Of a DNA stretch of 33,152 nucleotides, positions 9,857-32,831 are shown piece after piece (the stretch's first letter is position 1; each line of letters opens with the position of its first letter). The notes under the pieces are model-generated. The model did not search any database, was not told where the DNA came from, and saw only the letters and a list, made by a program, of their open reading frames with translations. The translations under genes were made by a program, and so were the position numbers. The stretch comes from Gammaproteobacteria bacterium (lineage in GTDB: Bacteria; Pseudomonadota; Gammaproteobacteria; JBOHHR01). The DNA is taken from assembly GCA_050740915.1 (NCBI GenBank), contig JBOIEG010000118.1, positions 1 through 33,152 of the forward strand. Reading direction: 5' to 3'.

Positions 9857-10802
9857 TACTCACGAGAAGAAGCAGCCTAACAAAGGCACCAAGCCATATA
9901 TTTTGACCAAGGCCACGGAACGAATCCTAAGAGCCGCCCATTTTTATCGCTTTCTGACAGCTCTTGACTTCGCAACCCTTCTTTACAGCCCTTCCTCTTT
10001 AACCTATGCGCGCGCGCTCTTATCCGAGCTTGCCGGAGGGGAGGATTTCAAGACCAACGAGTATCTCTATAGATTCAAGTTGCCCAACGGGACATCAAAT
10101 GGCAGCAGAATATATACCCTCGGAGTTAAAGGCAGAAACTATTTAGTAAGTGAGCTGGGCTTACCTGCTGATTGGTATTTCAGACCCCATAAATTGAAGT
10201 ATCTTAGCTATTGTCAGGCTGATCATAACCTCAGCCTTGCCCGTTTTCAAATTTCAGCCCAAGCCTGGGCTAAGAAGCAACCCAATTACCGCATCGCGCA
10301 CATCCGTATTTGTTACGAACTTGCCCAAACAGCACCTATTATCGAGATCACCACACAAGGCAAAACAGAAAGACTCAAAGTCATACCGGACGCGTGGGTA
10401 TGTTTTCAAAAACTCAGGGACGGCAGTGGTGAGCATGAACGTTTTATGCCAGTCCTGCTGGAGCTAGATCGCGGAACAGAGCACCAGCTCCGCTTCAAAC
10501 AACATGTGCGCTCCAAGATCGCCTTTATTCAAACGGGCGCCTATAGGCAGCTCTTCCACACCAATGCAGTAGTGATCGCCTACGTGACCACAGGACAAAC
10601 ACCTGACTATCAGCGCACAAGGAGAAAAGCCATTTGCCGCTTCACAATGGAAGTATTAAAAGAACTCGGAAAGGAATCCTGGGCTTCCATATTTCGCATC
10701 ACCAGCACTAGTCTTGAGCATATCTATGAGACGCCTTTTTTTGATGCACCCATCTGGTACCGGCCTGATTCGGACACGCCAGTGCCCCTTTTCACTCCCT
10801 AA
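9849..10802 (+). CDS. Replic_Relax (replication-relaxation) family-like protein
   Basis: The ORF-track frame opens at 9822, but the first ATG is 9849 (MNSTHEKK). It overlaps the E1 stop (9854-9856) by 8 nt. ILRAAHFYRFLTALDFATLLYSPSSLTYARALLSELA resembles the N-terminal wHTH signature of Replic_Relax proteins found on plasmids. Confidence 0.5.
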   Translation: MNSTHEKKQPNKGTKPYILTKATERILRAAHFYRFLTALDFATLLYSPSSLTYARALLSELAGGEDFKTNEYLYRFKLPNGTSNGSRIYTLGVKGRNYLVSELGLPADWYFRPHKLKYLSYCQADHNLSLARFQISAQAWAKKQPNYRIAHIRICYELAQTAPIIEITTQGKTERLKVIPDAWVCFQKLRDGSGEHERFMPVLLELDRGTEHQLRFKQHVRSKIAFIQTGAYRQLFHTNAVVIAYVTTGQTPDYQRTRRKAICRFTMEVLKELGKESWASIFRITSTSLEHIYETPFFDAPIWYRPDSDTPVPLFTP

Positions 10803-13089: not shown

Positions 13090-13374
13090 ATGCAAATGAC
13101 CACCAAAACCATGCATATCTCTCTGCCTGGGTCCCTGATCGAATCGGCAAAGCTACAGGTAGAGGAGGGAAAATTTAGCAATGTCAGCGATTATGTGCGC
13201 TCCCTCATTCGCGAGGATTTACGAAGGCACGAAGAACAAAAGCTAGAACAGATGCTACTCGTTGGGGTGCGCTCCGAGCGTGGGATGGAAGTTGGCTCAA
13301 AGGAATGGAAGGAGTTTCGCAAACGCTTGGTAAGACAAAGCCCGCAACAAAGTAAAAAAACCCAAGAAGCATGA
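13090..13374 (+). CDS. parD: ParD-family (RHH/CopG) antitoxin
   Basis: MQMTTKTMHISLPGSLIESAKLQVEEGKFSNVSDYVRSLIREDLRR matches the ParD/COG3609 pattern. The ORF-track frame opens at a TTG (13072). The ATG at 13090 or 13096 is the more likely start. The stop overlaps the toxin start (ATGA). Confidence 0.8.
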   Translation: MQMTTKTMHISLPGSLIESAKLQVEEGKFSNVSDYVRSLIREDLRRHEEQKLEQMLLVGVRSERGMEVGSKEWKEFRKRLVRQSPQQSKKTQEA

Positions 13375-13703
13375 AAAGATGGAGGGTACTCACCAAACGA
13401 CAAGCCGAAGAAGACACTAACGAAATCTACTCCTACATTGCCCGGGATAGCCCCCAAGCCGCAGAGGGCTTTTTAGATGCTATAGAACAAGCCTCTTCAA
13501 TTCTCTCTACTACCCCTGAGATTGGCTCCTCTCGTTATTTTCACCATCCTGAGCTACACGGACTTCGCTTCTACCCCCTCAAAAGGTATGAAAAATACCT
13601 TTTGTTTTATCGCACTGTGGAAGAAGAGCACGTTGTTGAAATAGCGCGCATCATCCATGGCGCACGGGACTTACCAACACTCTTTGGTCAGGAACAAAAC
13701 TGA
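13371..13703 (+). CDS. parE: ParE/RelE-family toxin
   Basis: 110 aa. QAEEDTNEIYSYIARDSPQAAEGFLDAIEQ ... YLLFYRTVEEEHVVEIARIIHGARD is the typical ParE layout. It is translationally coupled to parD. Confidence 0.8.
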   Translation: MKRWRVLTKRQAEEDTNEIYSYIARDSPQAAEGFLDAIEQASSILSTTPEIGSSRYFHHPELHGLRFYPLKRYEKYLLFYRTVEEEHVVEIARIIHGARDLPTLFGQEQN

Positions 13704-13857: not shown

Positions 13858-14073
13858 TCAGGACGGTACCCCAAACTTACTTTTCAAAGCCTCAATGACC
13901 ACCTCAGTCATTGATATACCCCTTTTCTTACTTTCACCAGCCCAATGACGGCGTAAAGATAGAGGGACTTTGATACAAAGGTTTACCATCTCTTCAGCGA
14001 TTTCTTCTGGTTTTATGGTATTATGGTTTACATCCTTTCTGGCTTCCTTAATTATCTCACTGTACTTACTCAT
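13858..14073 (-). CDS. small RHH partition adaptor (ParG-like)
   Basis: 71 aa. The C-terminal VPLSLRRHWAGESKKRGISMTEVVIEALKSKF is ribbon-helix-helix-like. It overlaps the stop of the upstream small ParA by 4 nt. Confidence 0.55.
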   Translation of the reverse strand: MSKYSEIIKEARKDVNHNTIKPEEIAEEMVNLCIKVPLSLRRHWAGESKKRGISMTEVVIEALKSKFGVPS

Positions 14074-14675
14074 TTCAGTATTCCTACTATCTCATCACCT
14101 AAATTTTCATAGTCCGTCCAGAAAACCTTTTGCTTGTAATTATCTACGTCCTTAACCGTCGTACCTGCCAGCCCCGCTTTTGAATAAGCTACAGATCTCC
14201 GGATCATGGTCTGGAAAACTGGTATACCAGAATTCTGTAAATCTTGTTTTATGGTATCCGCTTCTTTATTGGGAGCTGGGGGAACGATAGTTAGAAGGAC
14301 TCGGTATGCCGTATCACTAATGTTTCTCGTAAGATCTAACATAGGTTGTAGTGATACAACATCAGGGGTAGTAGGTAGAATTAGCAGGTCGCATCCTTTA
14401 GATAATTCTTTTAGATCATCCGTATCAGGTCTTGCAGGGGTATCTATCAAAACATAATCGTGACCAGCCACCATTTTCACAGCTTGGCGTTGATCCACAA
14501 TATTGAAGGGTAGCGAGCCCCTCTTAGCCCAGTTAATACAGGTTCTGTTTTGATCACCATCTACGACAAGCACCTTAGCCATTCCAGATAAAAATCTGGC
14601 CAAGTGTATGGTAGATGTGCTTTTACCTACCCCGCCTTTAAAGCCAGTGATGGTTATTATCTTCATTTCTGGCAT
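14070..14675 (-). CDS. parA: small ParA/ParF-type partition ATPase
   Basis: 201 aa with the deviant Walker A TGFKGGVGKSTSTIHLARFL, then VVDGDQN, then IDTPA. Confidence 0.8.
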   Translation of the reverse strand: MPEMKIITITGFKGGVGKSTSTIHLARFLSGMAKVLVVDGDQNRTCINWAKRGSLPFNIVDQRQAVKMVAGHDYVLIDTPARPDTDDLKELSKGCDLLILPTTPDVVSLQPMLDLTRNISDTAYRVLLTIVPPAPNKEADTIKQDLQNSGIPVFQTMIRRSVAYSKAGLAGTTVKDVDNYKQKVFWTDYENLGDEIVGILK

Positions 14676-14876: not shown

Positions 14877-15629
14877 ATGATTTTTTCCATAGCATCACAG
14901 AAAGGCGGCGTTGGTAAGACCTCATCAAGCATTTCCCTCTCAGCTGGTATAGCTCGCAAAGGCAAAAAAGTACTCCTCATTGATATTGATTCGCAAGCAA
15001 ACAGCAGCAAAGTATTACTGCCAAACTACCAACAACTGCAAAAACAGCAGACAATCTTTACAACAATTCTCGACCGAAAGGCACTTCAAATCCATAAAAC
15101 ACAACTTCCAAATCTCGATATCGTTCCGTCCCATATTCTCCTTTCTAATACTGACGTTGAATTAACCACCGCCATTGACCATCGGGAAGAGCGGTTAAGA
15201 CGAGAGCTTGATCTCATCAAGCATAACTACGACTTTGTATTTATCGATTGCCCACCTACCCTTTCGTGGCTCACGATTAATGCTATGACAGCCTCGGATA
15301 AAGTAATTGTTATTGTTTCCCCTGGGTATTTTGAACTTGATTCCATTGTTCAAATCAGCAAAACCATCAAAGAAGTGAAGGGGTATTTTAATCCAAATAT
15401 CGAGCTTTCCGGGTTTCTCTTTACGATGAGCGACCCTACTGTGAACAGTAAGACATCTTTGCAAATCCTCCGACAAACATACACCAGATCTGTCTTTAAC
15501 ACGGTTATTCCACGCAATACTGACCTTAGAGACGCGCACTTTGAGAAAAAGGATATCTTCTCTTTCAATCCCAACGCTGCTGCTGCACAGGCATATGCCA
15601 AATTAATAAATGAGCTCTTTCAATTATGA
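14877..15629 (+). CDS. parA: ParA/Soj-type partition ATPase
   Basis: 250 aa. ASQKGGVGKTSSSISLSAG (deviant Walker A), LIDIDSQANSS, FIDCPP. Confidence 0.85.
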   Translation: MIFSIASQKGGVGKTSSSISLSAGIARKGKKVLLIDIDSQANSSKVLLPNYQQLQKQQTIFTTILDRKALQIHKTQLPNLDIVPSHILLSNTDVELTTAIDHREERLRRELDLIKHNYDFVFIDCPPTLSWLTINAMTASDKVIVIVSPGYFELDSIVQISKTIKEVKGYFNPNIELSGFLFTMSDPTVNSKTSLQILRQTYTRSVFNTVIPRNTDLRDAHFEKKDIFSFNPNAAAAQAYAKLINELFQL

Positions 15630-17096: not shown

Positions 17097-17774
17097 ATGC
17101 CAAAACCCCTGCCGATCAACAAAGCACTCTATTATCAACACAAAATATATTTCAAACAAACTAAATCAGCTAAAACCGCTAAGGACTCACAGGATGTATG
17201 GCAAGATAAGAGCGGTATCTCCTCCGATCGCATAGCCTCTCGTCAGCCTGCATCGGTTCAACCAGGGCGGCGATCGCCCCACTTGACCAAAACTACTCCT
17301 CGTTCACAAAACATACCCTTTGCCAAAAAGAAAGCCGTACCTATCCAGCTATGGGTAAGCCCCATAGTGAAAGCAGAAGTTCAGCGACAGGCCCAAATAG
17401 ACGGCTTAAGCGTCTCAGCAACCGGCGCCGCCCTTCTTGAAGAAATACTGCGTCAAAAACTCCATGTACAACAAGCTGCCACCCTTGAAACAGTCCTTGA
17501 GAAGATTATCGCTAAAACAAACCGCTCCTTAGCAACTAGATTGACTTGGCTTCTTGTCAGAATCGCCTTTGATACAGGCCAAACACGAGTGATTTGCACC
17601 AACACCTTAGGCATGCAGGAAGGGATGAGTGAAGAATCGCTCAAGGAAATATTGGACACCGCTGACAAACGCACCAAAGCCAATCTCACAAGACGTACCC
17701 CTCAGCTTACTGAACTTGTAGCAGCTGTTGAAAAATGGCTTCTTGAGCCAGAGGAGGGGGGTAAAACGAATTAA
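17097..17774 (+). CDS. putative relaxosome accessory protein
   Basis: 225 aa. The segment WVSPIVKAEVQRQAQIDGLSVSATGAALLEEIL looks RHH-like. Its stop overlaps the relaxase start (TAATG). The start codon is uncertain because the ATG directly abuts a TATAAT at 17091-17096. Confidence 0.45.
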   Translation: MPKPLPINKALYYQHKIYFKQTKSAKTAKDSQDVWQDKSGISSDRIASRQPASVQPGRRSPHLTKTTPRSQNIPFAKKKAVPIQLWVSPIVKAEVQRQAQIDGLSVSATGAALLEEILRQKLHVQQAATLETVLEKIIAKTNRSLATRLTWLLVRIAFDTGQTRVICTNTLGMQEGMSEESLKEILDTADKRTKANLTRRTPQLTELVAAVEKWLLEPEEGGKTN

Positions 17775-18484
17775 TGGCAGTTGTCAAAGCAAACTATGTA
17801 AAACGAGGAAACGGCCTGAAGGGTAGAGCAAAAGCCACGGTCCGCTACATTACCCACAGGAGAGACCGCGACAATCACACAGTCACCCGCGACCTGTTTG
17901 GCTTTGATGGGCCACTTTCCAAACAGCACGCCTACAAAATGATCGATGAGGCTCCCCGCAGCACTATCTTTTATCGTTTCGTGCTAAGCCCAGCCCCCAA
18001 GAGAGAAGATCGCTACAGAGACCTCAGACTTTCAGAGATCACCATCAACACTATGCTTGCCTTGGAAGAGCGCTTAGGCAAACAAGTGCAGTTTGTTGCC
18101 ACGATACACGATAACCACAGTCCCCATCGTCACGTACACACTCTCGTCCTGGTTGAGCGTAAACTCACCAGAGCGGACTTTCAGGCGCTACGCCTTGAGG
18201 CCACAGAGCAAGCCTTATCTCAGCGCCGAGCACTTGATCGCATACGCGAACACCACCTAAGGCTTAGGCGCACCCGCAACAGTAGAGGTGCCCTAAGACA
18301 CCCTCAATCAAGCGCTCCCCGCTACCAGAGCTACACCTGTTTTCTCTGCAATTATCATCAATCCCTGCCACTCTCAAACTTTGGCTATCGCTGCCCCAAC
18401 TGCGGCCTATATCTTCGCCGCTTCAGAGAGAAAGAGTTTTTCTTAACACGAAGAAGGGAGGCAGGACTGGAAGTTAGTCTCTGA
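17774..18484 (+). CDS. compact MOB relaxase-like protein with C-terminal zinc ribbon
   Basis: 236 aa. The histidine cluster ATIHDNHSPHRHVHTLV resembles the HxDxxxPHxH 3-His motif of MOBQ/MOBP relaxases. Candidate catalytic Tyr residues are in KANYVKRG and VRYITHR. The C-terminus has CFLCNY...CPNCG. Confidence 0.6.
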   Translation: MAVVKANYVKRGNGLKGRAKATVRYITHRRDRDNHTVTRDLFGFDGPLSKQHAYKMIDEAPRSTIFYRFVLSPAPKREDRYRDLRLSEITINTMLALEERLGKQVQFVATIHDNHSPHRHVHTLVLVERKLTRADFQALRLEATEQALSQRRALDRIREHHLRLRRTRNSRGALRHPQSSAPRYQSYTCFLCNYHQSLPLSNFGYRCPNCGLYLRRFREKEFFLTRRREAGLEVSL

Positions 18485-18486
18485 GC

Positions 18487-20025
18487 ATGAAACGCTTTCT
18501 TTATATCCTAAGTACAGTTTTAAGTTTTCTTGGCAGCTGCTTTTCGAAGACTCATTCATTACACAATGCCCGCTTTGCCCGCCTTGATGAACTAACAAGT
18601 CTTGTGAGCCATACCCTTGATGAGGGAGGATTGCTTTTGGGAATAAGCTCATTCAACCAAATTCTTCGAGTACGTCTTACCAAGACACGCCCAGAGCTGG
18701 GCAACACACTCATCGTGGCGCCAACCCGCGGTGGCAAGGGACTACTTGCTGTGAGTCAACTTTTAACTTGGCCGCATTCAGTTGTGGTTAATGACATCAA
18801 AGGCGAGCTCTATGACCAGACCGCTGGCTACCGGGCAACTCTTGGCCCAGTCTTTTGTCTTGATCCACGGGGTTTGGGCCATTGCTTCGATCCTCTGCAT
18901 ACCCGCACTGACGAGGATGAGTTATATGCAGCAGCAAAAAACCTGTTGCATGAACCCCATGAGACTGATGGTAAGCCGTTTACCGAGCGGGCTATTAAAA
19001 TGCTCACCCTCATGTGGCTTGCCGCCAGAAAGCAAAACGAGCATTCTTATGAGCAAACCCGCCTGCTGCCATTTACCAGAAATTTAGCTGATCTTGGTTT
19101 AAATCGCGCTGTCCCAATAATCCACGCGATCTCACCCGCCTTAGCTACCCGTATGTTTGATGGGGAATACATACCAGAGCATGACTACAATGAGAATAAA
19201 TATTTGTCTTCATCCTGGGAATCCTTAACAGCCCGTCTCTACCCTCTTCTAACCGAAAAAGTTGCCCGCTGTTTTAATGGCTCGGATTTCACCGGAGCGG
19301 ACATCATCACCTCCACTAAACCTATTACAATTTATTTATGTTGGCCTGAGTCCGCGCTTCTTGCCAAAGCGCCTCTCATTCGGCTGGTGTGGGAATCTTT
19401 GATTGGGCAGATGCTTGATACCTATGACAGAGCCAAAGGGGAGGCCTGCCATCCGGTATTACTCCTTCTTGATGAGGCAGGCACCGTTACTCTTCCCAGT
19501 CTTCCCCAATATGTCGCAACGGTTGCAGGCCGGGGCATTTGCGTGTGGGCTGCCATTCAAGACCTCTCGCAGCTTGAGCTTTATGGCATGCATAAGGCCA
19601 AAACCATCAAAAACAATATGGATACTAAAATCTATTACCGACAAGCATCAAGTGAAACCGCAGAGTACCTCGAGCGCTCTCTAGGCAAACAATCAGGCTT
19701 CGCCCACTCCCAAACACTACACGATGGACAAGAGGAGAGTCAGGGACTTTCAGAGCATGCAGTACCCCTTCTTACGGCCAGAGACATCAATGAGCTTAAT
19801 CATGATGAAATTATCGTTTTTTTCTCCAACCACAAGCCCTTCAGAGCCAAAAGAATGGACTGGCGAGCCTTTCCAATCCTGACACAACGACGCGCAATTC
19901 CCCCTCCCAAACTTGCCACCCTTCCAGAACTTGAGTCAAACCCTTTCTACTTAAGAACAAAAAGCACGTGGAAGGGGAGAGCCATTGACCCAGACGATCT
20001 TAATCCTTATGAGAAGCTAAATTGA
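18487..20025 (+). CDS. type IV coupling protein (VirD4/TraG family)
   Basis: 512 aa. LIVAPTRGGKGLLAVSQLLTWPHSVVVNDIKGELYDQTAGYR matches the VirD4 Walker A region. LLLLDEAGTV is the Walker B. Confidence 0.85.
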   Translation: MKRFLYILSTVLSFLGSCFSKTHSLHNARFARLDELTSLVSHTLDEGGLLLGISSFNQILRVRLTKTRPELGNTLIVAPTRGGKGLLAVSQLLTWPHSVVVNDIKGELYDQTAGYRATLGPVFCLDPRGLGHCFDPLHTRTDEDELYAAAKNLLHEPHETDGKPFTERAIKMLTLMWLAARKQNEHSYEQTRLLPFTRNLADLGLNRAVPIIHAISPALATRMFDGEYIPEHDYNENKYLSSSWESLTARLYPLLTEKVARCFNGSDFTGADIITSTKPITIYLCWPESALLAKAPLIRLVWESLIGQMLDTYDRAKGEACHPVLLLLDEAGTVTLPSLPQYVATVAGRGICVWAAIQDLSQLELYGMHKAKTIKNNMDTKIYYRQASSETAEYLERSLGKQSGFAHSQTLHDGQEESQGLSEHAVPLLTARDINELNHDEIIVFFSNHKPFRAKRMDWRAFPILTQRRAIPPPKLATLPELESNPFYLRTKSTWKGRAIDPDDLNPYEKLN

Positions 20026-21231: not shown

Positions 21232-21585
21232 ATGGCGAGTCTAGGACTTGGACCACAGCTCGCGGTCGCTGTGGCTCGTTTTCTACTCCTCTGTGTTGTG
21301 TTGCTGACGCTTCCCACCCTTGCAGCTGCGCAGCCTACGCCACTTGCAGTCCAGCGCGTCTGGACCCAGGATGCAGGCGGCAATAACAAGACTTCCTTTT
21401 CCCCTGGTGAGACCATGCAGTTTGCGGCTCAGCTGAATAACTCATATGGGGCGTATCTGCTAGCGGCTAACGGGACGCAGCTGACCATCGCCACTAGCTT
21501 CGATACTAAACCAGGTGACTGTTGTCCGTTTCGGATGCGGATGGGATGTCTTTCTAATGAAAACGAAATTTGTAGCAGATGTTAA
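21232..21585 (+). CDS. secreted protein, probably 3'-truncated at the island junction
   Basis: It has a signal-peptide-like N-terminus (LLLCVVLLTLPTLAAAQP). The last ~25 residues (CCPFRMRMGCLSNENEICSRC) look like read-through. They coincide with the change from GC-rich to AT-rich DNA. Confidence 0.35.
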   Translation: MASLGLGPQLAVAVARFLLLCVVLLTLPTLAAAQPTPLAVQRVWTQDAGGNNKTSFSPGETMQFAAQLNNSYGAYLLAANGTQLTIATSFDTKPGDCCPFRMRMGCLSNENEICSRC

Positions 21586-21895
21586 CACAGGCACCTAATA
21601 ATCAATATCTTCATCTGGTGAGATGCTTGGTGTGTATTCCAGCGATCGCAATCGTCGGAAATTGTGATCACAATGGCGCGGAATTCACACGTGGGGGTAA
21701 AGAAAGGTAGGGCTGGTACCTTATTGTTTGGCATTAAGAGGTTCCTGTTCTTTTTTGCGGAACTGGGTTGATGGGAGGAGAAAGCCCGGATGAGATGATC
21801 GCAGAGTCCTTGAGGGCATTTGAAAAGAACATCAGCTAGTGCGCTCGAACACTATCTTTCTTGTTTATAGATATAAATTATAGAGGTACAACGTT

Positions 21896-22720
21896 ATGAA
21901 TAAAGAAAGAAATATTGAGTTACTAGGACAAGCGAAAAAGGAGAAACGTATTGATGAAGAGTCATATAAAATTCTTGTAGGCATAGCAGCACACATTGAA
22001 CCGTCAGCGCAAATGGTCAGAGCCCAAACAGTTATTTTAATTCCTGTTATGGTCGACGACTCACCTTCTGTTTGGGAATACAAAAATGACAAGGCAGTAA
22101 GAGAAGGGCACAATAGTGTCATAGAAGCGCTTAAAGGCTCACAAGAACATGCAAGCATTCTTTTCCGAACGCAGTACTTACACGGATATACACACAACAA
22201 CTGGGTGAAGCTTAGAGATGCAAAATCTATTGAAGAAGATGATTATAAGCCGGTAGATGATACGCCTCTTTATGATAGCACCATTGAACTTATAGGCAGC
22301 ACTATAATTAAGATGCAAGAAGCGCGGGATGAAAATAGGACAGTACGTTTCAGTGGATTAATTATCTCCGATGGTGAGCATTATATTAAAGCTGAAGATG
22401 ACCGACCATCAGTAAAAGCTAGGAAAGCAGAACGTGTAAACAAAGTGATTAGAGACCTCTTCGATCGCAGTAATGCCGACTTCCAAAATACGTTAGCATT
22501 TATGGGGATACGCAACAAACGGCTCGAATCATCTGGATTATCATTTCGCAGCGTTGCAAATTCTATGGGAATAGACGATGAGAGGGTAAATAAAAAAGGA
22601 CAGCCTGTCATGCAAATTATTGAAACTTATGCTGATGCTACGTCAATAAGACGGGCATTTGAAATGTTTTCTGAATTCTCACAAACAGGGGAAATAACGA
22701 TATATGGAAGATCAAGATAA
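21896..22720 (+). CDS. von Willebrand factor A (vWA, TerY-like) domain protein
   Basis: 274 aa. MIDAS motif VMVDDSPSV (DxSxS), DDTPLYDS (Thr), LIISDGEH (Asp). AGAGGT lies 8 nt upstream of the ATG. Confidence 0.7.
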   Translation: MNKERNIELLGQAKKEKRIDEESYKILVGIAAHIEPSAQMVRAQTVILIPVMVDDSPSVWEYKNDKAVREGHNSVIEALKGSQEHASILFRTQYLHGYTHNNWVKLRDAKSIEEDDYKPVDDTPLYDSTIELIGSTIIKMQEARDENRTVRFSGLIISDGEHYIKAEDDRPSVKARKAERVNKVIRDLFDRSNADFQNTLAFMGIRNKRLESSGLSFRSVANSMGIDDERVNKKGQPVMQIIETYADATSIRRAFEMFSEFSQTGEITIYGRSR

Positions 22721-22778
22721 CGACAAGAGGGTATATAATAAATACCCGTTCCTTTGTATGTTAGAATAGTAGTAAACG

Positions 22779-24692
22779 ATGGATAAGGAATCTAACCAGT
22801 TTACCATTCAAAGCAAGGAATTATCACAGCTTGAACAACTGCTAAATAAAGAAATGGCAGGTGCCCAAGTGGTACTTCTTACAGGCAGCACTTCACTTTG
22901 GCACATGAACGAAGGTTTGTTACGAAATGTAGCGACAGGCCGCCTCGCCGATCCTCAAAGAACGAAGATCAACAGTGCTTCTCTTTATGAACGGAACGAT
23001 TATTGGGAGAAAAGAGGCACGCGACCGGATAAACGGCTCCATGAGTGGCAGACTAACATGGATACTTATCTCAAGAAGCAACTTCAAGATGAAGAGAAAC
23101 GTAATCTGTTGGAAAGAATTCTGAAACGACATAATCAAACTCCTGATGAGGTAGTCGTAAACGCGGAAACTATCTATAACAGACTCATGGTAGATCAAAA
23201 AGGAGATGTTGAATTTTTTGCCAGAAGACTGAGTAGAGAAGATATTAAACAACACGCAGAAGTCATCCAGGAATTCGCGGGTATCTATGGGCAGAATTCA
23301 AGCAAAATAGCCAAAATACTTGCCGAGGGAATAATAAACGCTAACGACCAGCCTTGCGCACTTATCGACTCAGCCCAAAGAGAGTTAAGCGATGAAGAGC
23401 GAATTATACTTGAGACACTTGACCTGCACGCGCAAGCCAAAGAGAAAAAATATCTAGGGCAAATCGCGAAAGCTCAAACAAGGTATCAGGAGCAGCCGGC
23501 TTTACGAGAGGTGGCGCAGCAAACAAAAAGTGAGCCCCATAAAGCCAGGGAAGAACTTAGGCAATTGGTGGAGGAAGACGTCGGAGTTTGCACAGAAACA
23601 GATAAGGGGCAAGACGCATACTTCGCGGATACCGAAAACGCGATTTTTGGTGTGTTTGACGGAGTAGGAAGTTATAGGCATAGTGGTGAAGCTGCTAATA
23701 TAGCTAGTGAGCACATTAACGTCGCCCTAGCAGGCATTGAAAGCAATCTGGATCTTGATAAAACAAAACATACAGTAAGGGACGCGCTTATACAAGTAAG
23801 TGAGGAAATAAATGAAGAGGTAGTAACACGATATAAAATCGTAGAAGAAGACATAAGGAAAAACATTGCAGGAAATTTATCAGACGACGATTTTGACAAT
23901 AAATATAAACCAAGAACTGAATATGATAATAGTTCCATAAGCAAATGGATAAAAGGAGAACTTGACGCAGCTGAGCCAACAGAACGTTTGTATAATGGTT
24001 TAACAAGCTATATCCATGGTTGGATCAAGAAACAAGTAACTATGGCTACAACCGCCTCCGTAGTCAAACTGTGGCAGGGAGAAAATGGAGATAAACAAGC
24101 AATCATCGCTAATGCAGGAGACAGCAGGGTTTATGTATATAAGAATAAAGAGGATAAACTGGAGATAATAACTATCGATGATAACTTTCTCTACGAGGTT
24201 GTGGATGGACATAAAGCAAGAGAGATACAGAAGGCATTAGGCAATGGAGCAAAGATCAAGGATGTTCTGGCAGAAGAGACGGTTGTACTTAAAGAATCAA
24301 ATCCACTACACAAGAAGTTGTGGACATTTCATCATGGCACGATATGGAATGAAAAAGATTATCGTTTTTGGCAAAATGGAGAAGTAGAAGTACCGCTTAA
24401 AAACATTAGCTCTTTTGCAATGACGAGGCAAATCCCATTTGTAGGTACAGAACCAACTATAAAGCAAATAAAAATCGCATCAGGTGATAGGATTGTAATG
24501 ACGACTGATGGTGTTCACGACAATTTACGCACATCAGAAATTGAAGAAATAATTAGAAACAACCCAGACCCAATCGAGGCAGCTAATGCGGCAAAAAGAA
24601 AATTAGACGACATACGAGAATTAGCGCGGACATTGAAAGGCAGAAGCTATAAAGCAGACGATATAACGTTTGTTGTTATCGCCATAAACTAA
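22779..24692 (+). CDS. PP2C-family Ser/Thr phosphatase with an unassigned ~280-aa N-terminal region
   Basis: 637 aa. PP2C motifs appear in order: FGVFDGVGSYRHSGEAANIAS, ANAGDSRVYVY, MTTDGVHDNL, ADDITFVVIAI. Confidence 0.8.
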   Translation: MDKESNQFTIQSKELSQLEQLLNKEMAGAQVVLLTGSTSLWHMNEGLLRNVATGRLADPQRTKINSASLYERNDYWEKRGTRPDKRLHEWQTNMDTYLKKQLQDEEKRNLLERILKRHNQTPDEVVVNAETIYNRLMVDQKGDVEFFARRLSREDIKQHAEVIQEFAGIYGQNSSKIAKILAEGIINANDQPCALIDSAQRELSDEERIILETLDLHAQAKEKKYLGQIAKAQTRYQEQPALREVAQQTKSEPHKAREELRQLVEEDVGVCTETDKGQDAYFADTENAIFGVFDGVGSYRHSGEAANIASEHINVALAGIESNLDLDKTKHTVRDALIQVSEEINEEVVTRYKIVEEDIRKNIAGNLSDDDFDNKYKPRTEYDNSSISKWIKGELDAAEPTERLYNGLTSYIHGWIKKQVTMATTASVVKLWQGENGDKQAIIANAGDSRVYVYKNKEDKLEIITIDDNFLYEVVDGHKAREIQKALGNGAKIKDVLAEETVVLKESNPLHKKLWTFHHGTIWNEKDYRFWQNGEVEVPLKNISSFAMTRQIPFVGTEPTIKQIKIASGDRIVMTTDGVHDNLRTSEIEEIIRNNPDPIEAANAAKRKLDDIRELARTLKGRSYKADDITFVVIAIN

Positions 24693-24750
24693 TCTTCTTA
24701 AGTGGATACCCACTTCTTCTTAAAGATGTGCTGTCCGTCGATATACCCAC

Positions 24751-26442
24751 ATGAAAGAAGTATATGTCAATAAAAGACTTGTAAAACTACCAGATAAATG
24801 TTGGAAAGATGGAGCAGAGGCCAAGATACATAAAATCGATGCGGAGATAGTTTTCAGTACTGGCATGGTTCGAGAACAACAAGTTCTTAAACTTTTCCGC
24901 GAACCAGACGACCCTCGTTATCAACATGACCAAAACGCACGCAACGCCGCCGAGAAGCGCCTCAAGTATCATCGGCTTTACGCCAAGCTAGAAAATTTTC
25001 CTGAAAATCTGCCCCAGCGGGTTATTGTTCCGCAGGAGATCGCTAGAGACAGCAATGGCACAATCGTGGGGTACTCCATGCAATTTATGGCAAAAGCCGA
25101 GTTATTTAAAGAATATGTGCATAATAGAGATTTCCGCGACGGTTTAGGACGAAATCATTCAGATATTGTGAATAATATAATTCTTCCGGTGTTTAGAGAC
25201 CTGCATCATACGATATCTGAGCTTCATAAGAAGGATGTTATAATTGGAGATTTTAATGATGCCAATGTGCTCATAGAAGAAGACAGGGCGTATATCATTG
25301 ATGCGGATAGTTTCCAATTTGGAATATATCCATGTGAGTTATACAAGCCTGAATTTCTTGATCCAGCACTTATGAATCAGCGATCTGAGGGCATCGTAAA
25401 ATTATACGGAAAAAAGTATACGGCAGATTCTGACTGGTACGTCTACAATATCATGCTCATGCAAAATCTGCTTTTCGTCGGACCGTACGCTGGGAAAGTG
25501 ATATCGCATAACAAAAAGATTACAGAAAAGATACGCCGGGAGCAGCACTTAAACATCTTTCATCCGGATGTGAGATATTCAAACAAAGACAATTTCCATC
25601 ATAAAATTTTACCGGATGATTTGCGCGAATACTTCTTTAAGGTTTTTGGGGAAGACAAACGCGGGAATTTCCCGGCATGCCTACTGGACATGTGCTGGAA
25701 AAAATGCACAAGTTGCGGAGTAGAACACGCGAGGGAAAGATGTCCTAATTGTTATCGAACAACGACTCAAACAGTCACGTCAGGTTCGGCTCAGGCAGGG
25801 GTGCCAGTTTCCCCGACTTCACTTCCTAGTGCTAAGTGGCCGCTCCAGTCTCGGCACATAGGATCAACAGTATCTCAAAGAGTCACATCTCAATCATCAC
25901 GACAAGCCCGCGCGCAAAGACCCGCTTTGAGAGCGACAGACAATCTGAAAGGCTTTATAAAAAGACACAAAATTGGGATAGCCGCCGCCGCAATTTTCGG
26001 GTACGTTATTACGATGAGTCCATTTGAAGACCGTATTACACAGCTTGAACGGGCCCTACAAGAGCGTACCGGAGTCTTTGATTGGAACGCACATAATGAA
26101 TTAAGGCATCTTCATATCACCAATAATCCGCCTCACCTGAGAAAATCCATGGAGCACTCTAATGTCATTTTGCAACACTCATACATGGATGGCTATATTC
26201 TAAATATTCTAAGCGAGTGGCAAATAGACAAAAACACCTCCGCGGCGCGCGCCAATCTTCGGAGGAGCGCTCGACATTTTCCCGATCTGCGATTCATTGC
26301 AGCAGCGTGTTTTTTGAAGATTGGTGATTTGTACGTCTTTGAAGGCAATATAAATGAGGCAAAATTTTCTTATCTAAAGGTGGCTGAAGACAAGTCCTCT
26401 GATATGACGCGATACCGTGTGCTTGCAGAGGAAAGACTATAG
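24751..26442 (+). CDS. eukaryotic-like Ser/Thr protein kinase with zinc ribbon, one TM helix and a helical C-terminal domain
   Basis: 563 aa. QVLKLF (Lys), catalytic loop VIIGDFNDANVLI (DxxxxN), IIDADSFQF (DFG-like), FLDPAL. Then CTSCGVEHARERCPNCY and a TM segment IGIAAAAIFGYVITM. Confidence 0.7.
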   Translation: MKEVYVNKRLVKLPDKCWKDGAEAKIHKIDAEIVFSTGMVREQQVLKLFREPDDPRYQHDQNARNAAEKRLKYHRLYAKLENFPENLPQRVIVPQEIARDSNGTIVGYSMQFMAKAELFKEYVHNRDFRDGLGRNHSDIVNNIILPVFRDLHHTISELHKKDVIIGDFNDANVLIEEDRAYIIDADSFQFGIYPCELYKPEFLDPALMNQRSEGIVKLYGKKYTADSDWYVYNIMLMQNLLFVGPYAGKVISHNKKITEKIRREQHLNIFHPDVRYSNKDNFHHKILPDDLREYFFKVFGEDKRGNFPACLLDMCWKKCTSCGVEHARERCPNCYRTTTQTVTSGSAQAGVPVSPTSLPSAKWPLQSRHIGSTVSQRVTSQSSRQARAQRPALRATDNLKGFIKRHKIGIAAAAIFGYVITMSPFEDRITQLERALQERTGVFDWNAHNELRHLHITNNPPHLRKSMEHSNVILQHSYMDGYILNILSEWQIDKNTSAARANLRRSARHFPDLRFIAAACFLKIGDLYVFEGNINEAKFSYLKVAEDKSSDMTRYRVLAEERL

Positions 26443-26763: not shown

Positions 26764-27330
26764 TTATGTTCCCCCCGTGTTGATGTAGCGGTATAACGTT
26801 GCTCTGGAAACATTGAGCATTTTGCAAATCTCATCGATGGTATTGTTTTTGTCATTATAAAGCGATTGCGCCAGGGTTATTTTTTTTGGTGTATTGAGGG
26901 ATTTCGCTTTTGGTCTGCCGCCTAACCTTCCTCGCGCTCTAGCAGCTTGCAAGCCTGCGTTTGTCCGTTCTCTAATTACATCTCTCTCAAATTCCGCCAG
27001 TGCTCCAAAAATATAAAAGACGAGTTTCCCTCCTGATGTTGTTGTATCAATATTCTCCGTAATACTCTTAAACCCGATTTTTCTATTGTTAAGTTTTGTA
27101 ACTGTTTCAATGAGATGCTTGAGGGAGCGGCCAAGCCTATCCAGTCGCCAGACAACGATCGTATCTCCTTCTCGAACATACTTAAGCGCTTCTTCTAATC
27201 CAATGCGCTCTGCTTTTGCTCCACTTGCAGTATCTGTGAAGATACGGCTAACACCTATTTTCTCAAGCGCATATTTTTGAAGATTTAATGTTTGATCTGA
27301 TGTGGAAACACGAGCATAACCAATAAGCAT
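26764..27330 (-). CDS. serine recombinase, Hin/Gin invertase-like (resolvase/invertase family)
   Basis: 188 aa. MLIGYARVSTSDQ (catalytic Ser), VVWRLDRLGRSLKHL, ALAEFERDVIRERT, GRLGGRPK, and a C-terminal HTH (VSRATLYRYI). By eye it is closer to Hin/Gin than to gamma-delta resolvase. Confidence 0.9.
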   Translation of the reverse strand: MLIGYARVSTSDQTLNLQKYALEKIGVSRIFTDTASGAKAERIGLEEALKYVREGDTIVVWRLDRLGRSLKHLIETVTKLNNRKIGFKSITENIDTTTSGGKLVFYIFGALAEFERDVIRERTNAGLQAARARGRLGGRPKAKSLNTPKKITLAQSLYNDKNNTIDEICKMLNVSRATLYRYINTGGT

Positions 27331-27340
27331 ACACGTATCA

Positions 27341-27377
27341 TCTCAAAACTCATGACAAAAGACAAGGTTTTGAGAAT
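27341..27377. repeat. inverted TCTCAAAAC half-sites next to the recombinase start (candidate recombinase binding site)
   Basis: TCTCAAAAC (27341-27349) and GTTTTGAGA (27367-27375), with a 17-bp spacer. The right part, AA-GGTTTTGAGAAT (27364-27377), resembles a hix right half-site. The site begins 11 bp from the recombinase ATG (27330). Confidence 0.4.
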
Positions 27378-27415
27378 GATTGTACATCATATCGTTGATT
27401 ATATTGTTGTTTTTA

Positions 27416-27448
27416 TTGACAAACAGATACACTTTGGCTATACTTTGG
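27416..27448 (+). promoter_or_regulatory. sigma70 promoter with ACTTTGG direct repeats for the RelB/RelE-like pair
   Basis: TTGACA (27416-27421), 17-nt spacer, TATACT (27439-27444). ACTTTGG occurs at 27431-27437 and 27442-27448. Confidence 0.5.
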
Positions 27449-27453
27449 TTGTT

Positions 27454-27771
27454 ATGAACACGACTACCATTCACATTAAAACAGATGTGCAAACACGGGA
27501 AGCTGTTAAAAAAGTCGCTGAGGAATTTGGTTTTACGCTTACTTCACTTGTTAATGCACTATTAAAGCAGATTGCAAGACGCAAGCGACTTACCCTTGAT
27601 CTTGATGAGACACCAAATCAATACATGATTGAGTCGCTGAAGAAATCAGAGGAGGATATAAAAGCGGGCAGAGTGTCGCCTTCCTTTACGAACGCAAAAG
27701 ACGCAATTTCTTGGTTAGATGACCCAAACGCATCCTATGCAAATGGAGATAAAGTACGGGATGAGGTTTAG
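27454..27771 (+). CDS. RelB/DinJ-family (RHH) antitoxin
   Basis: MNTTTIHIKTDVQTREAVKKVAEEFGFTLTSLVNALLKQIARRKRL is a DinJ-like RHH. The ATG at 27454 follows the promoter, and the upstream part of the track ORF (from 27352) overlaps that promoter. Confidence 0.7.
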   Translation: MNTTTIHIKTDVQTREAVKKVAEEFGFTLTSLVNALLKQIARRKRLTLDLDETPNQYMIESLKKSEEDIKAGRVSPSFTNAKDAISWLDDPNASYANGDKVRDEV

Positions 27772-28021
27772 AAAACAATATCTAAAAGCAGACAAAAAAA
27801 TCAGAACTGCTTTTGCGCAAACCATTGAGCTGTTTGTTGAAGAGCCTGATCATCCAATACTGAGAAACCACTTACTAAGAGAAAAATTTGCAGGATATAG
27901 AAGCATTAATATAACAGACGACTACCGAGCGGTTTTTCGAGAAACCAAATCCGGGGACAGGACAACTATTACCTTTCATATGATTGGCACACACGATGAG
28001 CCTTATGGTGAAAATTCATAA
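27761..28021 (+). CDS. RelE/YafQ-type mRNA-interferase toxin
   Basis: MRFRKQYLKADKKIRTAFAQTIELFVEEPDHPILRNHLLREKFAGYRSINITDDYRAVFRE...ITFHMIGTHDE has the RelE/ParE-superfamily layout. It overlaps the antitoxin stop by 11 nt. Confidence 0.7.
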   Translation: MRFRKQYLKADKKIRTAFAQTIELFVEEPDHPILRNHLLREKFAGYRSINITDDYRAVFRETKSGDRTTITFHMIGTHDEPYGENS

Positions 28022-29270: not shown

Positions 29271-30273
29271 CTATGCGGACTTAAGTTGAGATAACTGTTC
29301 GGTAAATACTTCACAGGGAGTTTTGTATTGAAGCACTTTTCGCGGTATGTTGTTCAATTGGTAAACGACCTCGTTTAACTTTTCCTGAGAAACATCGCGA
29401 AAATCTGTTCGTTTAGGAAAATATCTTCGTATTAGCCAATTGCGATACTCGTTTGTTCCTCGTTGCCATGAACTGTATGGATCGGCAAAATATGTTTGCA
29501 TAGCAAGATCTTCCTTCAATCGTACATGCAGATAATTTTCACTGCCATTATCCAGTGTTGTTGATTTGCGAGCTTGTTTCGGATAGAGAACTGAAAATAC
29601 AAAGCTGTGCCAGATATGTTTCTTTTGCGCGAATGTGGGGTATTTGGTAGGCAAAGAGCAATCGGGATATTCGTTCTACTTCTGTATGAATACCTGTTTT
29701 ATGTTTGTTGCCAACAACGGTATCGCCTTCCCAATGTCCAAACTCTGAGCGTGTATTAATGTTTTCAGCTCGCTGTCGAATGGATACTCTATGGGGAATT
29801 TTAACTGACCAGTGCCTTATGCCAAGCCAGCGGCTTCTCTTTTTGTGGCTTCTTGGGAGCTTCTCCCATAATCGCAACTCTTTTTGCTCCCTATCATAAA
29901 TATATTGATAAATAGACTCATGGTTAATGTATTCTTCAGGGGATCGTTGGCCTTCCTTGATCTCCTTTCTCAGTCTCCCCGCAATTTGCTCCGGTGACCA
30001 GCCAAGCTCTAATTTTTCAAGAACATAGGATTTAAGTCCTGGACGGGTCTTGAGCAAATATTTTTTATGAAAGTTTAGTTTTCTTCCTTCTGTGGCTTTA
30101 TGAGCATGAATGGAATGATATATTCCATCTATTTTATTGCGTTGTAGCTCATCGGAAATACTGGAAGGGCTTCTTCCTAATCTTCTGGCAATTTCTCGAA
30201 CGCCGTCTCCGGTTGCATGCCAGTAGGCGATCTTATCACGCTCCAAAGCGGTAAGTTTATGATTTGATTTCAC
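29271..30273 (-). pseudogene. IS30-family transposase, split by one frameshift
   Basis: The N-terminal ORF (30273-29548) has KLTALERDKIAYWHATGDGVREIARRLGRSPSSISDELQRN (IS30 HTH) and GHWEGDTV. The C-terminal ORF (29654-29271) has LDNGSEN...DPYSSWQRGTNE (DDE region). The frames overlap at 29548-29654. I could not define the element ends, though they probably lie near 29.23 and 30.31 kb. Confidence 0.8.
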
Positions 30274-31872: not shown

Positions 31873-32831
31873 GAGCGTGTTTGAAAAATCGACAGAGGGC
31901 TTTCGGACCAGGTTTTCTGATGAGTAGGTGCCGTGGCGCCGTAACCTGCGGCACCCCGTAGCATGCACGGGCCTGTTGGCGGATGATGCTTTTTTTATTC
32001 CTCTGAGGGCGCTCACGTGAATTCGGACTACCCTTGTGATCTAACCGAGAGCGAATGGTGCCTATTGCAGCCGCTGCTTCCGCCCTCTGCGCTTCGAGGC
32101 CGGCCGCGCCGCTGGTCACTGCGCCATGTCGTCAACGCTATCTTCTACCTCCTGCGGGCGGGCTGCGCCTGGCGCCTAGTGCCGCATGATTATCCGCCCT
32201 GGCCCACCGTCTATCATTATTTATTTCCGCGAATGGCAACGCACCGGGCAGTGGCACTGTATTCATGAAGCCCTGCGCAAAGCCGTCCGACAAAAGGCTC
32301 ATCGCGACCCTTATCCCTCGGCAGCGATCATCGACAGCCAGAGTGTGAAGACCACCCAAGAGTCGGGTACGATTAAAGGATATAATGCGGGCAAAAAGGT
32401 CAAAGGCCACAAACGCCACGTGCTGGTTGATACCCCGGGGCTGCTGTTGGGGATCTCCATCACACCGGCCGACGTCCCAGAGCGAGCCGGTGGAAAGTGG
32501 CTCATCTCGGGGCTCAAGCCGCTTCAGCCGCGCCTCGCGTTGATTTGTGGCGATGAGGGTTATTCGGGGGAGGAGTTCACTCAGTGGTACAGCGCGGAGA
32601 GGGGCTGGCGGCTGGAGATCATCAAGCGCAACGACAGTGCCGAAGGCTTCGTCGTGCTATCCTGGCGTTGGATAGTCGAGCGCATGATTGCCTGGATGGA
32701 TCGCTTCCGCCGGCTCTGCAAAGACTACGAGCGCAAGGTGCAGACCAGCGAATACCTGATCGAGGCTGCTATGATCCGTCTGATGTTGAGGCGCCTGACC
32801 AGATAGAGGCTGCGATTTTTCAAACACGCTC
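31873..32831 (+). mobile_element. intact IS5-family insertion sequence (IS427/IS1031-like group)
   Basis: Perfect 19-bp terminal inverted repeats: GAGCGTGTTTGAAAAATCG (31873-31891) and its reverse complement (32813-32831). A direct TAA flanks each end (31870-31872 and 32832-34). The duplication could be read as up to CTAAG, depending on where the repeat ends. Length is about 959 bp. Confidence 0.85.
32017..32806 (+). CDS. IS5-family transposase, two overlapping frames (orfA 32017-32268, orfB 32186-32806), likely joined by a -1 frameshift
   Basis: orfA has [48 protein letters not shown] (DUF4096-type N-terminus). orfB has [18 protein letters not shown]...IDSQSVKTT...[17 protein letters not shown] (DDE). 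The conserved TVYHY-YFREW junction sits at TATTTATTTC (about 32216-32226). Confidence 0.8.

Follow-up and report, generated by a model that had tools for sequence, protein, structure and literature searches.

The forward strand of contig JBOIEG010000118.1, from the gammaproteobacterial assembly GCA_050740915.1, carries three consecutive genes for a von Willebrand factor A (vWA) protein, a PP2C phosphatase and a Ser/Thr kinase, and this triad is the subject of the present report. It was analysed within a window of 33,152 nucleotides, by which we mean the whole stretch of DNA studied. Gene 1 (21896-22720, + strand) is an open reading frame (ORF) of 274 residues encoding the vWA protein, gene 2 (22779-24692, +) one of 637 residues encoding the PP2C, and gene 3 (24751-26442, +) one of 563 residues encoding the kinase; the ORF list agrees with the three co-directional genes and the coordinates given in a preliminary description of this DNA. 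That description took the genes for a TerY-P-like triad, and the likeness holds at a distance: vWA, PP2C and kinase-zinc ribbon proteins are linked here, and each is predicted to be a remote homologue of an Escherichia coli protein, YegL, PphC and YegI respectively. Our analyses indicate that the triad, itself rare, derives by rearrangement from a widespread cassette of four genes; a PncA-like gene has been lost, the phosphatase has acquired an N-terminal helical module, and the kinase has acquired a tail unique to it. We are highly confident of the domain identities of the three parts; their joint function is a matter for more cautious argument.

Domains of the three proteins

Protein 1 finds no vWA match in Pfam, NCBIfam or PADLOC, and a PDB sequence search with it returned nothing useful. 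An AlphaFold2 model built on the family alignment (predicted local distance difference test score, pLDDT, 82; predicted template modelling score, pTM, 0.84) was compared with the PDB using Foldseek, and all significant matches are vWA domains or domains with a metal ion-dependent adhesion site (MIDAS), among them the Rea1/MDN1 MIDAS domain (E = 5e-5), TRAP, integrin I-domains, factor B and Rpn10. The five MIDAS positions are D54-x-S56-x-S58 (22055-22069, +), T123 (22262-22264, +) and D159 (22370-22372, +); across 60 diverse homologues all of these are invariant except S56, whose conservation is at least 90%. Between them, the fold matches and the conserved residues uphold the earlier claim of a vWA protein with an intact MIDAS.

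The vWA fold is visible by structure prediction alone, because the Pfam VWA models recognise none of the 60 family members tested, a single weak VWA_CoxE match aside. These members belong to a bounded family of proteins of about 260 residues, for which a word-indexed search returned only 10 clusters and an exhaustive profile search a far larger set (3253 representatives at E <= 1e-3 and 230 at E <= 1e-30); a genome scan with the vWA alignment gave no confirmed relative. E. coli YegL is detected by Pfam VWA at 7e-10 and does not match the hidden Markov model (HMM) of the family. Aligned by hhalign with the 60-sequence profile, YegL scores 50% probability (E = 1.6e-4) over collinear motifs that take in the MIDAS Thr, the DG motif and a C-terminal R-x-x-F-x-x-x-S helix, and the profile's top sequence match in the PDB is the TRAP vWA domain, with DxSxS aligned, at E = 0.55. 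We conclude that protein 1 represents a cryptic vWA family separate from classical TerY, and that support for placing it in the TerY clade is only marginal.

The catalytic domain of protein 2 (residues ~265-637; 23571-24692, +) contains a helical insertion of about 100 residues after motif II. The protein passes the Pfam thresholds for PP2C_2 (6.5e-9), PP2C (1.1e-6) and SpoIIE (3.9e-6) and matches the NCBIfam model Stp1 at 2.2e-15, and a Foldseek search with the model of the domain finds PppA, PstP and tPphA at about 1e-7. D294-G295 (of the DGxG motif), D448-S-R, D577-G578 and D627-D628 are invariant in an eight-sequence family alignment, and D279 (QD) was read from the sequence. By its Pfam scores, its structural matches and its invariant catalytic Asp residues, protein 2 is a PP2C with core motifs, as had been described. 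This long form is rare, with about eight full-length relatives.

The ~265 residues preceding the catalytic domain have no match in Pfam or the PDB, and so remain the unassigned N-terminus noted previously. Most of this region is an all-helical segment of about 200 residues (residues ~16-210; 22824-23408, +), here called the N-module, over which the AlphaFold2 model of the phosphatase is poor (pLDDT 30-77), the fold search being dominated by the PP2C domain. The N-module is homologous to the N-terminus of an 830-residue Metallophos phosphatase that occupies the same operon position in a related locus, L001 (E = 3e-26), and to the C-terminal part of the L001 kinase (E = 1e-11 against the window, 6e-28 within L001), a protein of 1162 residues with its copy of the module near the C-terminus. 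In L012, the N-terminal region of the phosphatase (residues 102-207) matches the C-terminal part of the kinase from the same locus (E = 8e-5), and in L013 (4585-8737) the module forms part of a stand-alone PP2C, with FtsK following. Judged by these homologies, the N-module is a real and portable unit; since the unrelated Metallophos domain of L001 replaces PP2C with the module kept, phosphatase activity together with the N-module seems to be what selection maintains.

In protein 3, a kinase core (residues 1-310; 24751-25680, +) is followed by a zinc ribbon (residues 316-336; 25696-25758, +; C319-x2-C322 ... C331-x2-C334) and by a tail (residues 338-563; 25762-26442, +) consisting of a linker, a hydrophobic segment and a C-terminal region of about 140 residues. 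The Pkinase match, at 19.4 bits, falls below the Pfam gathering cutoff of 31.7 bits, and there is no canonical HRD or DFG motif: the catalytic loop reads IGDFNDAN (G166-D-F-N-D-x-N172) and DADSF (D184-A-D-S187-F) replaces DFG. The protein nonetheless aligns with E. coli YegI (BLASTP 3e-7; family HMM against YegI 7.5e-14), which has Ser/Thr kinase activity even though its catalytic loop reads VGDxxQxS and DSD stands at the DFG position, and which requires autophosphorylation of Ser-162 (bioRxiv 10.1101/819920). S187 of the window kinase aligns with this serine. The window kinase retains all residues whose conservation across 112 relatives reaches 90%, namely K47, G166-D167-F-N-D-x-N172, I183-D184-A-D-S187-F-Q-F190 and the cysteines C319, C322, C331 and C334. 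YegI homology and this conservation of catalytic residues and four cysteines support a kinase followed by a zinc ribbon; the term 'eukaryotic-like' used for it earlier has to be qualified in view of its sub-threshold Pkinase score and atypical motifs. It is an atypical member of the superfamily and, by the standard of its own family, not a pseudokinase; because YegI is active with the same motif deviations, the window kinase is not a demonstrated pseudokinase. The zinc ribbon gives weak Nop10-type matches, and some sources name relatives 'H/ACA RNP subunit 3'.

The kinase tail is less easily placed. Its linker is rich in Ser, Thr, Gln and Arg between residues 338 and 400, with 19 Ser/Thr in 63 residues. 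The single transmembrane helix of the preliminary description corresponds to a hydrophobic run at residues 408-424 (25972-26022, +), but one that is borderline on the Kyte-Doolittle scale, averaging 2.09 over 15 residues and 1.48 over 19 against a usual cutoff of 1.6; YegI passes the same test with 11 windows. For the helical C-terminal domain also described there, a TPR_8 match at E = 0.046 is the sole evidence in favour. PDB sequence searches with the tail and with the kinase gave nothing useful, and the isolated tail (residues 346-563) has no BLAST similarity to the C-terminus of any other family member. Because it matches nothing when isolated, we rejected the idea that it is a divergent copy of the standard C-terminal domain of the family, and consider a long BLAST alignment to L008 and the tail columns that appear conserved in the MAFFT alignment to be artefacts. 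The regions that had been singled out beforehand as extra domains, at the N-terminus of the PP2C and at the C-terminus of the kinase, are both indeed lineage-specific.

The 310 nucleotides upstream of gene 1 (21586-21895, +) contain no ORF of at least 60 residues on the + strand and are presumed, from the sequence, to be the promoter region; a single weak sigma-70-like match lies at 21582-21611, and promoter-like matches around this region are not enriched (18 found versus 13.8 expected in shuffles). Two spacers of 58 nucleotides separate the genes (22721-22778 and 24693-24750, both +), the first with the 6-bp hairpin GGGTAT/ATACCC at 22729-22747 and the second with the 6-bp hairpin AAGTGG/CCACTT at 24700-24715. 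The sequence confirms the equal lengths and both hairpins as reported. Spacer length is not conserved among relatives, in which the genes overlap or lie 8-47 nucleotides apart. Against dinucleotide shuffles the folding z-score is -0.31 for spacer 1, which a simple scan flagged as a weak terminator-like site, and -1.70 for spacer 2, for which 11 of 200 shuffles fold equally well and the minimum free energy structure lacks the hairpin stem. A 6-bp hairpin of equal quality occurs in 8.4% of the 58-nucleotide tiles of the window. By fold score and by frequency the hairpins are thus indistinguishable from chance, and they were rejected as regulatory elements.

The G+C content (GC) of the triad is 0.415, compared with 0.471 for the contig. 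The 'AT-rich island' proposed for it is real in so far as the triad sits in a low-GC block of about 8.5 kb (about 21.6-30.3 kb), along with a resolvase, a RelB/YafQ pair and IS30 remnants; but the contig is a mosaic, ranging from 0.41 to 0.59, and includes further blocks just as AT-rich.

Window-type loci and the four-gene cassette

Eight distinct loci of the window type were found, including the window itself, some of them limited by short contigs; all eight carry vWA, phosphatase and kinase genes together or are cut short. L004 has the order vWA, a 654-residue protein and a 950-residue kinase, L012 the order PP2C, vWA, kinase, and L006 the order PP2C, kinase, vWA, while in L001 (10795-16815) a vWA gene precedes those for the Metallophos (calcineurin-like) phosphatase of 830 residues and the 1162-residue kinase. 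In L014 (1327-7845, the same as L100) and L015, genes for a Replic_Relax relaxase and a TrwB-like type IV coupling protein (T4CP) stand between the vWA and N-module PP2C genes on one side and the kinase gene on the other. The P0279 contig has a vWA-sized gene (269 residues), a PP2C gene and a gene for 675 residues assumed from its size and position to encode the kinase, and L099 shows vWA and PP2C on a contig too short to reveal a kinase. An identical triad, with the same resolvase and RelB/YafQ neighbours, is present in GCA_050741755.1 and in two sequencing runs. L001 adjoins AbiEii, toxin-antitoxin and RHS-toxin/Imm26 genes, and neighbours of this kind (AbiEii, toxin-antitoxin, RHS) are seen across L001 and L004. 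The window-type triads are a conserved lineage of their own, with the N-module and the long phosphatase as shared new features.

The kinase family as a whole comprises at least 637 clusters, with relatives in at least 471 species-representative genomes, mainly of cyanobacteria and also of Patescibacteria, Acidobacteriota, Planctomycetota and Proteobacteria, as well as archaeal metagenome-assembled genomes. We counted gene arrangements in the best 80 loci from named genomes (L019-L098). In 58 of them a short PP2C, the kinase, a protein that we call X348 and the vWA protein are encoded on one strand in this fixed order, and most of the remainder are truncated; L019:6100-10800, L056 and L065 (Acaryochloris marina, NC_009925.1) are examples. 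The whole four-gene cassette is also present on 12 of the 14 IMG/VR viral contigs found to encode the kinase (L134-L147), several of which measure 200-436 kb. No publication describing this cassette was found. These 58 mainstream loci, and every window-type locus on a long enough contig, bear out the expectation that the three genes would be syntenic elsewhere. The window differs in its gene order of vWA, PP2C and kinase, and its kinase lacks a conserved C-terminal domain of about 280 residues that mainstream kinases share.

X348 (e.g. L019:8888-9934) is highly conserved, with about 75% identity across cyanobacteria, and corresponds to no Pfam family. Its consensus has the collinear nicotinamidase/isochorismatase motifs IDVQNxFC, WPxH and GxAxxHCV, and its only PDB profile match is PncA of Mycobacterium tuberculosis (E = 0.54); we tentatively regard it as a PncA-like protein. 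The possibility that X348 is a second vWA protein was rejected, with an hhalign probability of 0.4%. The window contains no X348 homologue, separate or fused (HMM E > 2; hhalign probability < 1%), and fusion into the PP2C N-module or the kinase tail was rejected on the same hhalign probability. Of 63 observable loci, 38 have an NrtR-like NUDIX regulator upstream, and in L008 the cassette is followed by genes for nicotinate phosphoribosyltransferase (NAPRTase) and NAD synthase. On the phage-like contig L135 (1947-10768) NAPRTase precedes the cassette and DUF5131 and a PHA02142-type RNA ligase adjoin it, which suggests that large phages carry a signalling cassette linked to NAD salvage.

It could accordingly be asked whether the triad is a displaced remnant of this NAD-salvage-linked cassette, whose parent form would control the PncA-like nicotinamidase or sense NAD, and whose plasmid form would either act in trans on NAD-salvage enzymes of the host or be in decay. 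The fixed gene set, the collinear catalytic motifs of PncA in X348, the upstream NrtR-like regulators and the adjoining NAPRTase or NAD synthase genes in L008 and L135 all favour such a descent, as does the loss from the window kinase of the family's standard C-terminal domain. Yet the assignment to PncA is tentative at its E-value, there is no NAD-related gene among the window ORFs scanned, and the three ORFs are intact with every catalytic and MIDAS residue kept, which argues against decay. The new features shared by the window-type lineage, N-module and long phosphatase, imply instead a distinct selected function, and we judge a displaced remnant to be quite improbable.

Plasmid setting and the proposed switch

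A Pfam scan of the window ORFs shows a plasmid-like contig, and the earlier statement that the triad is carried on a mobile element is well founded: the contig has two ParA genes (14070-14675, -; 14877-15629, +), a Replic_Relax relaxase gene (9822-10802), two coupling-protein genes, a resolvase gene, toxin-antitoxin genes and insertion sequence (IS) fragments. The T4CP gene nearest the triad (18487-20025, +; T4SS-DNA_transf 1.7e-39, TraG-D_C 7.5e-22) lies 1.9 kb upstream on the same strand, in another GC block and with two small ORFs between, and a second coupling-protein gene is found at 748-3057 (-). Immediately downstream of the triad are a serine resolvase (26764-27330, -; Resolvase 1.5e-46) and the RelB/YafQ pair (27352-28021, +; RelB 1.4e-8, YafQ_toxin 1.8e-5); MazE (265-648) and ParE (13371-13703) are encoded elsewhere. 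Two coupling proteins, two ParA proteins and at least three toxin-antitoxin components suggest that two plasmid backbones have been combined. No overlap joins the two ends of the contig. Megablast and tblastn searches of PLSDB matched neither the triad nor the vWA protein nor the remainder of the contig, and the kinase found just two remote plasmid matches there; the best kinase matches alone hint at a cyanobacterial origin.

Several other features of the contig may be recorded. An ORF of 236 residues (17774-18484, +), annotated as overlapping the start of the T4CP gene, has no Pfam match. An HxDxxxPHxH-like motif (HDNHSPHRHVH) can be read in its translation, together with CxxC pairs towards the C-terminus; the product is a possible small relaxase of MOB type, or else an accessory protein. 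Between the T4CP gene and the triad, an ORF of 117 residues (21232-21585) has a signal-peptide-like N-terminus, no Pfam match and a GC content unlike that of the triad. Upstream of the Replic_Relax gene are genes for a ThiF-family (E1-like) protein (8303-9856) and a 574-residue protein with an SprT-like metalloprotease domain (5742-7466); an SprT-like gene is also present on the plasmid-like P0279 contig and may be a shared backbone feature. An IS30-like transposase (29271-30273, -; HTH_38 in its N-terminal part) is split into two overlapping ORFs and so is probably frameshifted or a pseudogene, and a DDE_Tnp_1 transposase fragment (32186-32806, +) marks the high-GC end of the contig (GC 0.59).

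Transfer genes accompany the triad in four of the eight window-type loci, in which relaxase and T4CP genes adjoin it: the window, L006, L014/L015/L100 and the P0279 contig, the last on the assumption, made from position, that a 476-residue gene following Replic_Relax encodes the T4CP. This raises a second possibility, that the triad regulates DNA transfer by the plasmid, the kinase and phosphatase determining how far the T4CP, the relaxase or a factor associated with them is phosphorylated, and the vWA protein and N-module docking a HerA/FtsK-type ATPase, so as to gate conjugation, mobilisation or entry exclusion. The transfer genes inserted between PP2C and kinase in L014 are suggestive in this respect, as are the stand-alone N-module PP2C that precedes FtsK in L013 and the short PP2Cs, related to the catalytic domain of the window, that directly precede HerA/TraG/TrwB-like ATPases in the metagenome loci L110:1594-4385, L114:921-3510, L115:490-3910 and L116; association with FtsK-like ATPases has moreover been published for TerY-P (PMC4978471; PMC11090510). 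However, cargo of any function often adjoins transfer genes on small plasmids, and in the window itself the T4CP gene is set apart by distance, by the intervening ORFs and by base composition. In the chromosomal-type loci L001 and L004 transfer genes are absent out to 10 kb, L012 and L099 offer too little sequence for a verdict, and no PLSDB plasmid carries the vWA family, which is therefore not a general component of conjugation. A role in DNA transfer is, on balance, unlikely.

The reading that we prefer, tentatively and with a confidence slightly short of even, is that the triad is a TerY-P-like conflict switch, a single transcription-linked signalling module on a mobilisable or conjugative plasmid. 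The kinase would become active by autophosphorylating S187, the counterpart of the essential Ser-162 of YegI, and would then phosphorylate Ser or Thr residues of partner or target proteins. Candidate targets are the vWA protein, for example at S172, which is nearly invariant and belongs to a flexible loop close to the MIDAS, and the Ser/Thr-rich linker of the kinase itself, and the PP2C would reset the switch. The MIDAS metal of the vWA protein could clamp an acidic or phosphorylated ligand, making this protein an adaptor or read-out, while the N-module of the phosphatase and the tail of the kinase might tether the enzymes to one another or to a target. The module would serve the plasmid or its host in conflict, as a defence against phages or competing elements, in the manner of classical TerY-P.

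Several observations weigh against this conflict switch. The similarity to classical TerY-P is remote, the vWA protein escaping the Pfam VWA models that detect YegL; the triad encodes no effector domain such as a nuclease, pore former or NADase; and the vWA protein, on which the preliminary description had the switch act, is only a candidate substrate. The adjacency of half the window-type loci to relaxase and T4CP genes suggests a role in DNA transfer instead. The mainstream relatives are chromosomal, present in single copy and set within NAD-salvage clusters (NrtR, PncA-like, NAPRTase, NadE), which resembles metabolic regulation more closely than it does a defence island of sporadic occurrence. 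Finally, PADLOC (PADLOC-DB v2.0.0) returned for the triad weak matches to other systems, PDC-M21C and PD-T4-6. With the same database YegL, PphC and YegI of E. coli K-12 match no TerY-P model (YegI weakly matches PD-T4-6 and MkoA); as PADLOC fails on the triad of E. coli itself, its negative result cannot exclude systems of the TerY-P type.

A more general role has also to be weighed, in which a eukaryotic-like Ser/Thr kinase and phosphatase pair with an accessory vWA protein would modulate host physiology (envelope, stress, or tellurite and metal sensing) without any part in conflict. TerY-P was itself first proposed as a metal-sensing phosphorylation switch in the Ter-associated stress response (PMC11090510), and YegI and PphC of E. 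coli are chromosomally encoded, the accessible parts of the literature on them reporting no phage phenotype. The Pfam scan, however, found no Ter genes (TerD, TerZ, TerC etc.) among the window ORFs, and carriage on a plasmid with toxin-antitoxin pairs, as well as the AbiE and RHS neighbours of relatives, favours conflict. General signalling is in our estimation the least probable of the explanations considered.

A broader proposal joins elements of the foregoing. The set may be an undescribed signalling system apart from classical TerY-P, whose ancestral form would control or sense NAD+ salvage through a PncA-like enzyme in conflicts between phage and host, and whose window form would have been retargeted, the N-module and the vWA/MIDAS protein docking the kinase and phosphatase onto HerA/FtsK-type coupling ATPases and thereby gating DNA transfer or blocking incoming DNA. 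We hold this to be distinctly unlikely. If true, its link between NAD+ salvage and conflict would account for the presence of the system in cyanobacteria, in the Candidate Phyla Radiation and, next to NAPRTase, in large phages.

Bacterial immunity that depletes NAD+ is known, which lends interest to a parent cassette that connects Ser/Thr phosphorylation with NAD+ salvage, in phages as well as in chromosomes. Irrespective of function, a large branch of the TerY-P design has escaped annotation, being spread over at least 471 species genomes and over phage contigs, with a vWA protein that Pfam misses and a kinase below threshold. TerY-P is a validated anti-phage system without an identified substrate, trigger or effector, and the triad offers experimental handles: a compact three-gene unit on a small plasmid, an N-module that is kept on Metallophos in L001 and on sibling kinases, and a repeated link with relaxase and coupling-protein genes.

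Comparison with known systems

The TerY-P triad was reportedly first set out by Anantharaman, Iyer and Aravind in 2012. It consists of a TerY-like vWA protein, a PP2C and a Ser/Thr kinase fused to a zinc ribbon (PMC11090510). The remark in the preliminary description that no mechanistic study is known no longer holds, since biochemical work on E. coli YegI and PphC has been published (bioRxiv 10.1101/819920, 10.1101/303594) and TerY-P was validated as an anti-phage system by Gao 2020, as cited in two later sources (PMC7699616, PMC11090510). Variants with an OB (oligonucleotide/oligosaccharide-binding) fold are validated stand-alone defence systems (PMC11090510; PMC7699616), and TerY-P is described as defending against T7-like phages (PMC7699616). 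In Pseudomonas aeruginosa TerY-P protects against Autographiviridae, with most cells surviving (bioRxiv 10.1101/2022.08.12.503731).

Common to the window and TerY-P is a linked set of genes for a MIDAS vWA protein, a PP2C and a Ser/Thr kinase that bears a zinc ribbon on its C-terminal side, found on mobile DNA and tending to lie near FtsK/HerA-type ATPases. The window differs in that its vWA protein belongs to a separate family unseen by the Pfam VWA models, in its order of vWA, PP2C and kinase, and in the long PP2C bearing an N-module. The unique tail of the window kinase stands where the validated systems have an OB fold and YegI a helix-hairpin-helix region. Moreover, the window is without Ter, McrBC or CoCoNuT partners, and its nearest large relative, the cassette of four genes that includes one for a PncA-like protein, has no described counterpart in TerY-P.

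That mainstream cassette has in common with the window a kinase family of about 40% identity over kinase and zinc ribbon, the cryptic vWA family and a PP2C. It is distinguished by four genes in fixed order, by a short PP2C of about 280 residues and by its PncA-like gene, and it is found on chromosomes and large phage contigs, in NAD-salvage clusters, whereas the window form has a plasmid context. Its short PP2C matches PphC at 3e-4.

With the YegL-PphC(YegK)-YegJ-YegI locus of E. coli the likeness is one of particular residues. The kinases share a G-D-x-N-x-x-N/S loop, D-x-D-S-F in place of DFG and a Ser at the essential autophosphorylation site; PphC is likewise of the PP2C_2 type; and YegL aligns over the MIDAS Thr, the DG motif and the C-terminal helix. 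Identity between the kinases is, however, only about 22%, and the PP2C and vWA scores are marginal. PphC has 253 residues compared with 637 in the window PP2C, yegJ (DUF2314) is inserted in E. coli, and the window kinase, unlike YegI, contains a zinc ribbon, with no more than a single hydrophobic segment of borderline score. More distant again are PppA/PpkA, of the threonine-phosphorylation pathway of type VI secretion, and PstP/PknB, which have canonical HRD/DFG kinases, FHA readers and no MIDAS vWA protein, and with which homology is limited to the catalytic folds; they nevertheless provide, in PppA and PstP, the best structural matches to the PP2C domain, and they share with the window triad the principle of a reversible switch operated by a PP2C and a kinase.

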